A DNA stretch of 64,000 nucleotides, from NCBI RefSeq assembly GCF_057098645.1, contig NZ_CM169472.1; one strand, 5' to 3'. Within the stretch, counting starts at the first letter, position 1, and the number at the start of each line of letters is the position of its first letter. Positions 56,885 through 59,167 of this stretch are shown one piece after another. The notes under the pieces are model-generated. The model was not told the origin of the DNA and did not search any database. It saw nothing but the letters and a program-made list of their open reading frames with translations. A program made the translations under genes and the position numbers.

Positions 56885-57025
56885 ATGACATTACCCAATA
56901 TTCTCTTAACCCGTATTGATAACCGTCTGGTTCACGGTCAGGTTGGCGTGACCTGGACATCCACCATCGGTGCGAATCTGCTGGTAGTCGTGGATGATGT
57001 TGTCGCTAGCGATAATATTCAACAG
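56885..57025 (+). pseudogene. agaB: agaB (galactosamine PTS EIIB) 5' remnant, about 47 codons
   Basis: MTLPNILLTRIDNRLVHGQVGVTWTSTIGANLLVVVDDVVASDNIQQ then the ORF runs into unrelated sequence that overlaps the 3' end of the opposite-strand LysR gene. Confidence 0.75.
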
Positions 57026-57075
57026 GTATTATTTAATTTAGCAAGCCCTTATTTCCTGTTCACATTTTTACGTTT

Positions 57076-58020
57076 TCAAACGCATTCTGAAAACATCTCC
57101 CAGCCCTGCATTCGTGCGCGTAATTTCTCCAGTAACCAGCGCAGCGCCTCATCATTATTACGCCGCTTATTCCAGAGTAGAGAGAGCGTAAAAGCAGGAA
57201 CCTCGAGTGGGACATCGGCAAATTGCAACCCATAATCGGCTACCCAGCCTTCTGCCAGCCCCTGCGGTACGGTCGCTAAAGCCGGTATCTGTCTCAACAT
57301 CAACGGTAACGATGAGAAATTTGGCGTGACGTAACGCACTTCCCTTTTACGCCCGCAGTCAGCCAAAATCAGATCGATAGAGCTACTGCTGGCACCGCGA
57401 TAAGAGACCAAAAGATGATCGATTTCAGTATATACATCAAGGCTTAACGGTGAAGTGAGGGATAACTGGAGCGGATGCCACATCGTGCAAAACCCCATTT
57501 GAGTGATCACTTCTCGTTCCACTCCGGCGGGCACCTGCTCCACGACGGAGATTGCTACGTCCACCTTATCCTGTTGCACTTTTTCGCCATCCTGGAAAGG
57601 ATCGGATACCGTGACTTGTAAGCGAATCCCGGGTGCCATTTGGGCTATATCTGCCATCATTCCAGGCATCAGCCAGCGTTCGACCCAGTCACTCATCCCC
57701 AGGCGAAACGTATGCTGATCCTGTTCTGGGGTAAAAACTGGCCTTTGAAAAATCACCTGCTGCATTTGATCCATCACAGGCAGTAGTGCCGTAACCAGAT
57801 CTTGTGCACGTGGTGTCGGTGCCATCCCCTTTGCCGTGCGCACAAATAACGGGTCGTTAAACATTTCTCTCAGCCGTGCCAGCGCGCCACTGACTGCTGG
57901 CTGCCCCAAGTGTAACTTGCTGGCTGCACGTGAAACGCTCCCCTCTCGATGTAGCACCAGGAGCACGATTAGCAGGTTGAGGTCGACCCGGTTTAAATCA
58001 TTTTCTCTGATAGAGTCCAT
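57076..58020 (-). CDS. LysR-type transcriptional regulator
   Basis: ORF 57076..58053 trimmed to the ATG at 58020 (MDSIRENDLNRVDLNLLIVLLVLHREGSVSRAASKLHLGQPAVSGALARLRE = HTH). Confidence 0.8.
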   Translation of the reverse strand: MDSIRENDLNRVDLNLLIVLLVLHREGSVSRAASKLHLGQPAVSGALARLREMFNDPLFVRTAKGMAPTPRAQDLVTALLPVMDQMQQVIFQRPVFTPEQDQHTFRLGMSDWVERWLMPGMMADIAQMAPGIRLQVTVSDPFQDGEKVQQDKVDVAISVVEQVPAGVEREVITQMGFCTMWHPLQLSLTSPLSLDVYTEIDHLLVSYRGASSSSIDLILADCGRKREVRYVTPNFSSLPLMLRQIPALATVPQGLAEGWVADYGLQFADVPLEVPAFTLSLLWNKRRNNDEALRWLLEKLRARMQGWEMFSECV

Positions 58021-58027
58021 TATATTA

Positions 58028-58042
58028 ATCAATTTGAATGAT
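58028..58042. promoter_or_regulatory. LTTR-box-like ATC-N9-GAT in the LysR/MBL divergent intergenic region
   Basis: atcaatttgaatgat between the divergent start codons. Confidence 0.35.
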
Positions 58043-58101
58043 GTAATTCGCAAAAGGATACTGGTGCCCGTACTGTAATAACAGAACTTATCGAGGATAG
58101 A

Positions 58102-59058
58102 ATGAAACTTTTGCTGACTCTGGTGACCTCACTGGTACTCTCCGTAAATGCGTTAGCAACGCCTATACCTGTGCCTTCTCCTGATACACAAGCACCGGGC
58201 TATTACCGCATGATATTGGGCAAACTACGTATTACCGCTGTCTCCGACGGCACGGTGACAATTCCGCTAGATAAATTACTCACCCACATTTCTGCCGATA
58301 AACTGCGCCAGCAACTGGCAAAGGATTCCCTGACACCCCATACGGAGACTTCAATCAATGCATTTGTTATTGATAATGGCCAGCAGCGCGTGTTGGTTGA
58401 TGCCGGTGCGGGCGATCTGTTTGGCAACAATGGAGGCCAACTGCTTGAAAACCTGGCAGCTGCTGGCTATCCGGCTGAAACCATTGATGCCGTGCTGCTG
58501 ACGCATATTCATGCCGACCACTCTGGTGGCATCTCCCGTCAGGGCAAACCAGCTTTCCCAAACGCCCAGGTATTCGTTGAGCAGAAAGATGCGGATTTCT
58601 GGCTTAATCCGGCGAATGCCTCGAAAGTAGAAGATAGTCAGAAGCACACCTTTGTCGAATCGGAGCAGACCATCCGCCCAGTGATCAACGCAGGTCAGCT
58701 GAAAACCTTTATCGCACCGGCAACGGTATTTGCAGACATTACGGCCACCTCAACGGCCGGCCATACACCTGGAAGCGTGATGTACACAGTGGAGAGTGAA
58801 GGCCAGACGCTAGTGTTGTGGGGCGATATTATTCATGCCAAAGCAGTGCAGATGCCGGATCCTCACGTGGCGATACATTTCGATGTGGATCAACAGCAAG
58901 CGGTAAAAACCCGTGAGCGAGTATTAAAACATGCGGCTCAGGGTGGTTACTGGGTGGCAGCTGCCCATATCTCATTCCCTGGCCTGGGGCATGTTAAAAG
59001 CGACAGCAAGGGTTATCGTTGGGTCGCTGCCAACTATACCACGCAACTAGCCCCCTGA
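58102..59058 (+). CDS. Secreted metallo-beta-lactamase-fold hydrolase (HxHxDH)
   Basis: 318-aa ORF; N-terminal signal-peptide-like MKLLLTLVTSLVLSVNALA; motif LLTHIHADHSGG; later candidate His/Asp ligands (GHTPGS, WGDIIH, AAHISFPG). Confidence 0.75.
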   Translation: MKLLLTLVTSLVLSVNALATPIPVPSPDTQAPGYYRMILGKLRITAVSDGTVTIPLDKLLTHISADKLRQQLAKDSLTPHTETSINAFVIDNGQQRVLVDAGAGDLFGNNGGQLLENLAAAGYPAETIDAVLLTHIHADHSGGISRQGKPAFPNAQVFVEQKDADFWLNPANASKVEDSQKHTFVESEQTIRPVINAGQLKTFIAPATVFADITATSTAGHTPGSVMYTVESEGQTLVLWGDIIHAKAVQMPDPHVAIHFDVDQQQAVKTRERVLKHAAQGGYWVAAAHISFPGLGHVKSDSKGYRWVAANYTTQLAP

Positions 59059-59167
59059 TTTAAGAGGTCAGTCCGCACGGAGCGAGGATTTACGGCGGTA
59101 TTCACTAAAAAGACTAATTGTTTAGCAGGCGGCCCCAGGGTTCTTCAAACGGGGCCACGGAGAGATA

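Follow-up and report, generated by a model that had tools for sequence, protein, structure and literature searches.

What occupies the space between agaB and rsmI in Escherichia coli genomes that lack the genes found there in K-12, and what could it do? The question is raised by a 64,000-nucleotide stretch of contig NZ_CM169472.1 (assembly GCF_057098645.1; hereafter the window, meaning the whole stretch analysed), in which positions 56885-59167 hold the remains of agaB, a gene for a LysR-type transcriptional regulator (LTTR) and, divergent from it, a gene for a predicted secreted hydrolase of the metallo-beta-lactamase (MBL) fold. Over 56800-59200 the window is 100% identical to the genome of E. 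coli O145:H28 strain RM9872, and the RefSeq annotation of RM9872 and the list of open reading frames (ORFs) of the window give the same order of features: kbaY, malX-like, MalY/PatB-like, agaB pseudogene, LysR, MBL, rsmI. The K-12 interval between kbaY and rsmI reads agaB-agaC-agaD-agaI-yraH-yraI-yraJ-yraK. An earlier reading of the letters alone (the original prediction) had recognized this K-12 content, had placed the end of the agaB homology after about 47 codons near 57025 and had assigned the rest of the interval to a LysR-type gene (57076-58020, minus strand) and a 318-residue protein (58102-59058); the K-12 gene order, alignments ending at 57025-57031 (codon 47-49), ORF coordinates and Pfam all bear this out.

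We propose, with a probability of roughly 70%, that the pair is an accessory module made of an LTTR and an exported lactonase of the methyl-parathion hydrolase/dihydrocoumarin hydrolase (MPH/DHCH) clade, that it sits in a polymorphic slot of the E. coli chromosome, and that O145:H28 later underwent a deletion of about 3.0 kb next to it. This reading is built on directly observed gene content, breakpoints and frequencies, on family placement, metal-ligand and specificity-switch residues, on the conservation of the pair and its operator-like box, and on purifying selection.

Placement of the enzyme in the MPH/DHCH lactonase clade

The enzyme gene (58102-59058, plus strand) encodes a 318-residue protein that matches the Pfam family Lactamase_B (PF00753, 5e-18), carries the motif THIHADH (H135-x-H137-x-D139-H140) and aligns to MBL-fold structures in Foldseek with a probability of 1.0, all of which place it in the MBL-fold superfamily. 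The original prediction had held that the family could not be resolved by eye and had named lactonase activity and beta-lactam hydrolysis as candidates. Profile and structure searches do resolve it: searched by sequence against solved structures, the protein matches first AncDHCH1, a reconstructed lactonase ancestor (PDB 5hif/6c2c, E 9e-88), then MPH (1p9e, 4e-78), OPHC2 (4le6, 5e-72), PoOPH from Pseudomonas oleovorans (4o98, 1.6e-71), AbOPH (4xuk, 8e-60), LrsL (7y7u, 2e-46) and AidC (4zo2, 5e-33), with subclass B3 beta-lactamases (various PDB entries) at 1e-6 or weaker. Foldseek with an AlphaFold model gives the same ranking, with a TM-score of 0.74 to 5hif and of about 0.4 to beta-lactamase L1. 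Identity is 48% to AncDHCH1 and 43% to MPH, and all seven metal ligands of MPH (H147, H149, D151, H152, H234, D255 and H302 in MPH numbering) are kept as H135, H137, D139, H140, H221, D242 and H289, which are invariant in 15 homologues. On these grounds we assign the enzyme to the MPH/DHCH lactonase clade. The clade comprises the dihydrocoumarin hydrolases (AncDHCH1 and the extant JsDHCH, BbDHCH and SmDHCH) and MPH, which descends from them; the matches to AncDHCH1 and MPH are full-length, with the same di-metal site including the bridging Asp255 (D242 here). OPHC2 and PoOPH, lactonase/esterases with a promiscuous phosphotriesterase activity, belong to the same clade (E about 5e-72, TM-score about 0.73, identity about 36-40%). 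What sets the present protein apart from the DHCHs and MPH is its occurrence in Enterobacterales rather than in soil Beta- and Alphaproteobacteria, its LTTR partner in a fixed two-gene unit and the absence of all five MPH-defining changes; OPHC2 and PoOPH, for their part, come from Pseudomonas, are thermostable and have not been described with an LTTR partner.

Those five changes bear on the possibility that E. coli acquired an organophosphate (methyl-parathion) hydrolase under pesticide selection, which the 43% identity to MPH, the full-length match and the shared metal site would favour. Tokuriki and colleagues found l72R, an S193 insertion, h258L, i271T and f273L to be necessary and sufficient to turn ancestral DHCH into MPH, and extant DHCHs show a kcat/KM of at least 1e6 on dihydrocoumarin and below 1e2 on organophosphates (PMC8222346, bioRxiv 10.1101/504811). 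By the same numbering (L72, no S193, H258, I271, F273) the present enzyme has the ancestral lactonase state at five of the five sites, namely L59, H245, I258, F260 and a 193 loop ungapped against AncDHCH1. None of the states that define MPH proper (R72, the S193 insertion, L258, T271, L273) is thus present, true MPH orthologues are more than 90% identical to each other, and neither transposon context nor flanking repeats were found around the gene, so that acquisition as a pesticide hydrolase appears highly unlikely. H245 and I258 also appear to match the sites mutated in the H250I/I263W variant of PoOPH (4o98), the equivalence being drawn through MPH positions 258 and 271; that double mutant reportedly converts the lactonase into a phosphotriesterase.

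The MBL fold, the HxHxDH motif, the predicted export and weak matches to L1, AIM-1 and SMB-1 (E 1e-6 to 1e-4) would each also fit a subclass B3-like beta-lactamase conferring resistance under LysR control, analogous to AmpR-AmpC. We give this reading next to no probability, since the protein scores 46.6 bits against a cut-off of 240 in the subclass B3 model and 41.1 against 100 in the class B core model (NCBIfam NF033105 / NF012229), the MPH/lactonase matches are better by 70-80 orders of magnitude, and the fold comparison favours the MPH clade (TM-score 0.74) over L1 (about 0.4). The lactonase half of the originally proposed activities is therefore retained and the beta-lactam half is not. 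PADLOC defence models returned only generic MBL matches for the enzyme (LmuA 27.7 bits, Avs1a 26.3 bits), and the regulator matched no model.

More serious, although still unlikely in our estimation, is the alternative that the enzyme is a quorum-quenching lactonase acting on N-acyl-homoserine lactones (AHLs) in the manner of AidB, AidC or LrsL, in which case E. coli, making no AHLs itself, would destroy the signals of its neighbours in the periplasm. The AidB family is the best NCBIfam match (5e-60) and the protein is homologous to LrsL and AidC, which share with it the di-zinc MBL lactonase fold and an active-site His in place of the Tyr of AiiA-type enzymes; H245 appears to equal His260 of LrsL, a residue reported to be needed for substrate binding in MomL, LrsL and AidC, and extracellular quorum-quenching enzymes have been reported, LrsL among them. 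Against this, the AidB score (NF047979, 203 bits) lies far under the curated cut-off of 360, identity to the AidC, LrsL and AidB proteins is only 24-33%, and the much closer relatives are dihydrocoumarin hydrolases, for which AHL activity is not established. OPHC2, closer to the present enzyme than LrsL or AidC, has dihydrocoumarin as its best tested substrate and hydrolysed no AHL tested (PMC3817169). The regulator, moreover, resembles aromatic-acid sensors and not AHL-linked regulators. The phosphotriesterase-like lactonases (PLL) with which PMC8537011 is concerned are a different lactonase family.

Returning to the MPH/DHCH assignment, the N-terminus of the protein, MKLLLTLVTSLVLSVNALA/TP (the slash marks the end of the predicted signal peptide, residues 1-19, 58102-58158), combines a basic n-region, a hydrophobic core and an A-x-A site, with no lipobox and no twin arginine. 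The signal-peptide-like leader is kept in eight homologues, solved mature domains align from about residue 23, and MPH/DHCH precursors likewise carry an N-terminal leader ahead of the mature domain. An MBL-fold protein with an HxHxDH motif and a probable signal peptide, as the original prediction had described it, is what these comparisons support. The protein is predicted to pass through the Sec pathway and to act in the periplasm as a di-zinc lactonase or aryl-esterase of the dihydrocoumarin-hydrolase type.

The regulator and the divergent spacer

The divergent gene (57076-58020, minus strand) encodes a 314-residue protein with an N-terminal HTH_1 domain (3.5e-17) and a C-terminal LysR_substrate domain (5e-21) in Pfam, the domain composition of an LTTR. 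Its best solved relatives are the DntR entries 5ae4, 5ae5, 1utb and 2y7k (E 3e-46, 34% identity over 291 residues, ungapped), which describe a salicylate-activated, NahR-like LTTR (PMC4730206), and it reaches none of the NCBIfam equivalog cut-offs (BsrA 196/480, LeuO 113/262, LelA 107/500, YidZ 82/314). We assign it from the DntR matches to the NahR/DntR-like group of LTTRs, whose members respond to salicylate or other aromatics. Members of that group likewise diverge from their presumed target and have an ATC-N9-GAT / T-N11-A box in the shared spacer; the presumed target differs here in being a single gene for a predicted exported hydrolase, not a catabolic operon.

The lysR-MBL spacer is 81 bp long and contains the box ATCAATTTGAATGAT (58028-58042), an ATC-N9-GAT motif of the T-N11-A type that lies within the lysR leader, 8 bp upstream of the start codon. 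Both hallmarks of an LTTR locus, a divergent presumed target and a T-N11-A box in the shared spacer, are present. When the E. coli spacer was aligned with those of seven further Enterobacterales taxa (enzyme identity to E. coli 65-87%), the segment AATCAATTTGAATGAT, which holds the box, proved near-invariant across the eight taxa, whereas the surrounding intergenic DNA has diverged, and the box claimed in the original prediction is upheld in this way. Its support comes from conservation and not from its mere occurrence, as the ATC-N9-GAT motif is not found above chance in the window (19 occurrences against 15.7 expected). Agrobacterium has a related half-site, ATCGATTTGA, at the same position.

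Two further elements may belong to the same regulatory region. The motif ATC-N9-GAT recurs as ATCATTTTCTCTGAT at 57997-58011, within lysR codons 4-8, at a distance of 31 bp from the box; this copy is kept in the eight taxa and is possibly a second LTTR half-site, although coding constraint (IREND) may account for its conservation. The second conserved intergenic element, GGATACTG (58056-58063, plus strand), is present in seven of the eight taxa, and Serratia has CATAAT at the same place. It may represent a -10 hexamer (GATACT) 17 nt after a TTGAAT in the box, a combination that scores below the promoter-scan threshold, or else an LTTR activation site. The only strong promoter-scan match, ATTACA-17-TATAAT on the minus strand, overlaps the lysR start codon and was put down to coincidence in AT-rich sequence, given the conserved N-terminus M-x-x-IREND. 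Overall, the geometry of the spacer fits the textbook LTTR scheme of autorepression combined with inducer-dependent control of the divergent gene (PMC4730206), and would be compatible with either activation or repression of the enzyme gene.

Conservation of the pair

Outside E. coli, all loci with sufficient flanking sequence have the LTTR gene next to that of the enzyme, and the two are divergent wherever gene calls or annotation existed. These loci come from metagenomic Erwinia-like contigs, Enterobacter kobei, Pantoea agglomerans, Atlantibacter, Serratia, Winslowiella, Cedecea and an Erwinia rhapontici plasmid; adjacency was also found with tblastn in 14 further species representatives. The genes outside the pair differ in almost every locus. 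Erwinia aphidicola is the nearest named relative (88% amino-acid identity), and DNA homology to the closest contig is confined to the two genes (57101-59059, 80.5%). Agrobacterium and Rhizobium plasmids carry an LTTR gene (29-30% identical) next to an enzyme gene (42-45% identical), divergent in Agrobacterium and adjacent but co-directional in Rhizobium. These comparisons point to an LTTR-lactonase unit with a conserved box that is widespread in Enterobacterales and reaches Alphaproteobacteria. No other Escherichia species was among the 18 loci recovered by a degenerate-DNA scan of species-representative genomes, a weak negative given the strict pattern used.

The closest Erwinia-like loci (L005 2941-7639 and L018 254-6612) contain genes for an EamA/DMT transporter, a MocR-type GntR-aminotransferase, the LysR protein, the MBL protein and a GNAT acetyltransferase; E. 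coli holds only the two-gene core of this five-gene context.

Measured against the homologues on L005, the ratio of nonsynonymous to synonymous substitution rates (dN/dS) is 0.073 for the enzyme (87% identical) and 0.075 for the regulator (83.7% identical), as expected under purifying selection. This bears on whether the pair is a decaying, unexpressed relic in E. coli, which its rarity (1.2% of the genomes surveyed below) and a frameshifted regulator gene in strain 2012C-4221 could suggest, as could the higher dN/dS within E. coli (0.18-0.6), a range that rests on very few substitutions. Both ORFs are nevertheless intact in the window and in GF3-3, A30 and PT62, the genomes with fully inspected annotation; both genes are named for the cassette genomes displayed with their products, though the listing omits pseudogene status; and the long-range dN/dS of about 0.07 is accompanied by the retention of the ribosome-binding site, the box and the signal peptide. 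That the pair is a relic we consider improbable.

Alleles of the agaI-rsmI slot

A survey of 5,426 complete genomes found the yraHIJK allele between agaI and rsmI in 3,276, the LysR-MBL cassette in 63 (1.2%) and a third allele, encoding a RelE/ParE toxin and a helix-turn-helix (HTH) protein (hereafter RelE/HTH), in 13, with the genomes beyond these three counted alleles left unclassified by the allele queries. The LysR-MBL pair is thus an alternative allele of the agaI-rsmI slot, which has at least three alleles in E. coli; O157:H7 carries the K-12 arrangement. On the right side, the last 66 bp before rsmI (59102-59167) are common to the LysR-MBL and RelE/HTH alleles and mark the edge of the variable slot, and homology to K-12 restarts only at 59175, inside the 3' end of rsmI (59168-60031, minus strand). 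As side observations, rsmI has 287 codons in the LysR-MBL and toxin-antitoxin alleles against 286 in K-12 (L002 19315-20175), and the yraHIJK allele has its boundaries within the last rsmI codons and, on the other side, within the 3' end of agaI (756 nt against 768 nt).

How the cassette reached the slot was approached through its flanks and its divergence. The cassette flanks in GF3-3 yielded no convincing repeats, and no insertion sequence (IS) remnants or integrase genes mark the cassette; the lack of convincing repeats leaves transposition or site-specific integration without evidence. Its GC content (51%) is that of the genome. Between O145 and other cassette carriers, synonymous divergence (dS) is 0.09-0.14 for rsmI and 0.005-0.04 for the cassette genes, which suggests either a spread of the cassette by recombination between E. 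coli lineages or a mosaic flank. No cassette copy was found on the E. coli plasmids searched, the nearest plasmid-borne homologues being those of Erwinia and Pantoea plasmids (76-82% identity).

Truncation of agaB by a separate deletion

Set against K-12 alone, the window shows one contiguous difference, and the original prediction accordingly spoke of agaCDI and yraHIJK as replaced by the LysR and MBL genes. These genes are indeed absent; that one event swapped agaB', agaCDI and yraHIJK for the pair is, however, very improbable in the light of GF3-3, which carries the cassette with agaBCDI intact. What remains of agaB (plus strand, 56894-57031, codons ~4-49 of a 158-codon gene for a galactosamine phosphotransferase system (PTS) IIB component, now a pseudogene) is, over this stretch only, 96% identical to GF3-3 agaB and 92% to K-12 agaB and is enclosed in a chimeric ORF (56885-57235). 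In blastn against GF3-3, window positions 56894-57031 map to agaB, and 57022-59400 match the cassette together with its left flank (98.6% identity), the two segments overlapping by the 10 bp of the junction (57022-57031), where the microhomology ACAG.A.TTA is common to agaB (ACAGAAATTA) and to the cassette left flank (ACAGGAGTTA). Missing relative to GF3-3 are about 3.0 kb, comprising the 3' part of agaB, agaC, agaD, agaI and a spacer of about 275 bp. A full-length agaB would run for ~158 codons and be followed by agaC and agaD; here only codons ~4-49 remain and agaCDI are absent.

The agaB'-LysR junction is present in exactly 30 of the 5,426 genomes, three of which (N96, 2012C-4221 and 2020CK-00188) are about 5% diverged across it. 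The remaining 33 of the 63 cassette genomes are without the junction, and the three of this type that were inspected (GF3-3, A30 and PT62) all have agaBCDI intact. A single swap is further contradicted by the position of the junction, whose microhomology links agaB to a flank that runs uninterrupted into the cassette in junction-free genomes, and by the right edge, which recurs in the RelE/HTH allele. The overlap of the two segments at the microhomology and the 3.0 kb missing relative to GF3-3 indicate that the cassette was in the slot first and that the galactosamine genes were deleted second. We therefore read the locus as two separate events, the slot allele and a later microhomology deletion of about 3.0 kb that fused agaB at codon ~47-49 to the cassette flank.

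An independent event has truncated agaB at the same AAATTA site in strain EC21Z-078 (L017 7092-7108, equivalent to window position ~57031), where an IS1 insertion and deletion takes out agaCDI, yraHI and part of yraJ. The region has thus been damaged repeatedly, and the site itself seems to be either fragile or preferentially targeted. An IS1-mediated origin of the O145 junction was itself considered and rejected, the O145 haplotype being without an IS remnant and the microhomology sufficing to account for it.

The O145 haplotype has lost agaBCD and retains agaR, kbaZ, agaVWEF, agaA (annotated nagA), agaS and kbaY. The agaBCD genes encode galactosamine-specific enzyme II (EII) components, agaI is dispensable and agaS encodes a deaminase; O157:H7 is already unable to use galactosamine (Gam-negative) through an agaC amber codon (Hu et al., PMC3668189). 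On the basis of this established pathway and the loss of agaBCD, we predict that O145:H28 should grow on N-acetylgalactosamine (Aga-positive) and not on galactosamine (Gam-negative). As in the other E. coli aga/gam variants (the 2.3-kb deletion of K-12, the agaC and agaI ambers of O157:H7), galactosamine uptake genes have been lost independently at the same locus; O145 differs from these in losing agaBCDI by a microhomology deletion with the N-acetylgalactosamine genes intact. With another allele in the slot, Yra fimbriae should be missing as well.

The linked malX/malY insert

The agaB homology starts only at 56894 because its first three codons and the sequence upstream belong to a 3.0-kb insert (53881-56893, plus strand) that stands in place of the last six kbaY codons, the spacer between kbaY and agaB, and agaB codons 1-3; alignments with K-12 and GF3-3 break off at 53880 and restart at 56894. 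The insert is low in GC (42.4% against 50.2% for the window) and carries a second malX-like PTS IIBC gene (54037-55608; 736.9 bits in the NCBIfam malX model, cut-off 632) and a MalY/PatB-like C-S lyase gene (55621-56793; PatB 359.5 bits, cut-off 340). It occurs in 30 of the 5,426 genomes, the same count as for the agaB'-LysR junction, from which we assign insert and junction to one 30-genome haplotype.

Several observations concern the insert and its surroundings. It sits within the agaS-kbaY-agaB operon, preserves the kbaY and agaB reading frames, is without a malI-like regulator and has a strong bidirectional terminator at its end (56799-56824). An Rfam scan of 53800-60200 gave one sub-threshold match, to Termite-leu (25.8 bits, gathering score 51, E 0.025) at 53969-54026, which, lying in the leader upstream of the malX-like gene beside a hairpin, is probably due to chance. 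Elsewhere in the window, yhaV, a type II toxin gene (~44932-45396), is a pseudogene with an internal stop, and the antitoxin gene prlF is intact according to the annotation of RM9872.

Proposed function of the module

The mechanism that we envisage, in which export, regulatory logic, inducer and substrate are all predictions, would have the LTTR bind the ATC-N9-GAT box, which is part of the lysR 5' leader and would adjoin or overlap the enzyme promoter. The regulator would repress its own gene and switch the enzyme gene on upon binding a small aromatic or hydroxy-acid ligand. The enzyme, once exported and metal-loaded, would hydrolyse a lactone or aryl-ester of the dihydrocoumarin type; activity on beta-lactams is not expected, nor is efficient hydrolysis of organophosphates.

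Several points weigh against this proposal. With identities of only 48% to AncDHCH1 and 43% to MPH, transfer of the substrate is uncertain, and it may be weakened further by the suspicion of the OPHC2 authors that their own enzyme has an unknown native substrate (PMC3817169). The AlphaFold model has a pLDDT of 70, with residues 243-260, which include three of the switch sites, below 50; it was for this reason used for confirmation of the fold only, and no conclusion on the substrate pocket was drawn from it. Should GATACT be the -10 hexamer, the box would overlap the -35 and the geometry would fit repression as well as activation of the enzyme gene. The annotation of 2012C-4221 (L016 7143-8078) combines the frameshifted lysR with an intact MBL gene, so that the pair is not indispensable as a unit; this strain may express the enzyme without the regulator, or its module may be starting to decay. 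Lastly, our literature search found no activity, export, transcription-start or binding data for the protein or its enterobacterial homologues.

Biological significance

The locus has hitherto been visible through generic labels. RefSeq names the pair a LysR-family regulator and an "MBL fold metallo-hydrolase" and agaB' "PTS sugar transporter subunit IIB", with the remark 'incomplete; missing C-terminus', and the literature search returned no paper describing the locus in O145:H28 and no characterised enterobacterial homologue of the enzyme. The original prediction had allowed that finding the same arrangement annotated across common E. coli lineages would speak against it, and this is in part the case: PGAP annotates agaB', LysR and MBL in all O145:H28 complete genomes among those listed, with generic product names only. 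The LysR-MBL cassette represents ordinary variation between strains; although itself uncharacterised, it belongs to known kinds of gene and does not amount to a novel type of system. Its placement nonetheless brings a protein labelled only as an MBL-fold metallo-hydrolase, in a major food-borne pathogen lineage, into a well-studied enzyme clade with a testable substrate prediction, and the clinically worrying reading of a hidden beta-lactamase is all but ruled out. For O145:H28 a galactosamine-negative phenotype and the absence of Yra fimbriae are predicted, and for the species the agaI-rsmI interval emerges as a multi-allele slot.

A more speculative role, which we hold to be doubtful, is that of a sense-and-destroy unit for diffusible lactones of the ruminant or plant habitat, either of the coumarin type, whose ring-opened ortho-hydroxy acids would then serve as inducer, or AHLs. 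If true, such a unit would alter how cattle-associated O145:H28 perceives or tolerates lactones, for instance in the sensing of AHLs via SdiA, and would be a physiological function with which the MPH/DHCH clade has not so far been credited in enteric bacteria. More generally, the pairing of an LTTR with a lactonase could help to find the native substrate of the ancestors of MPH.

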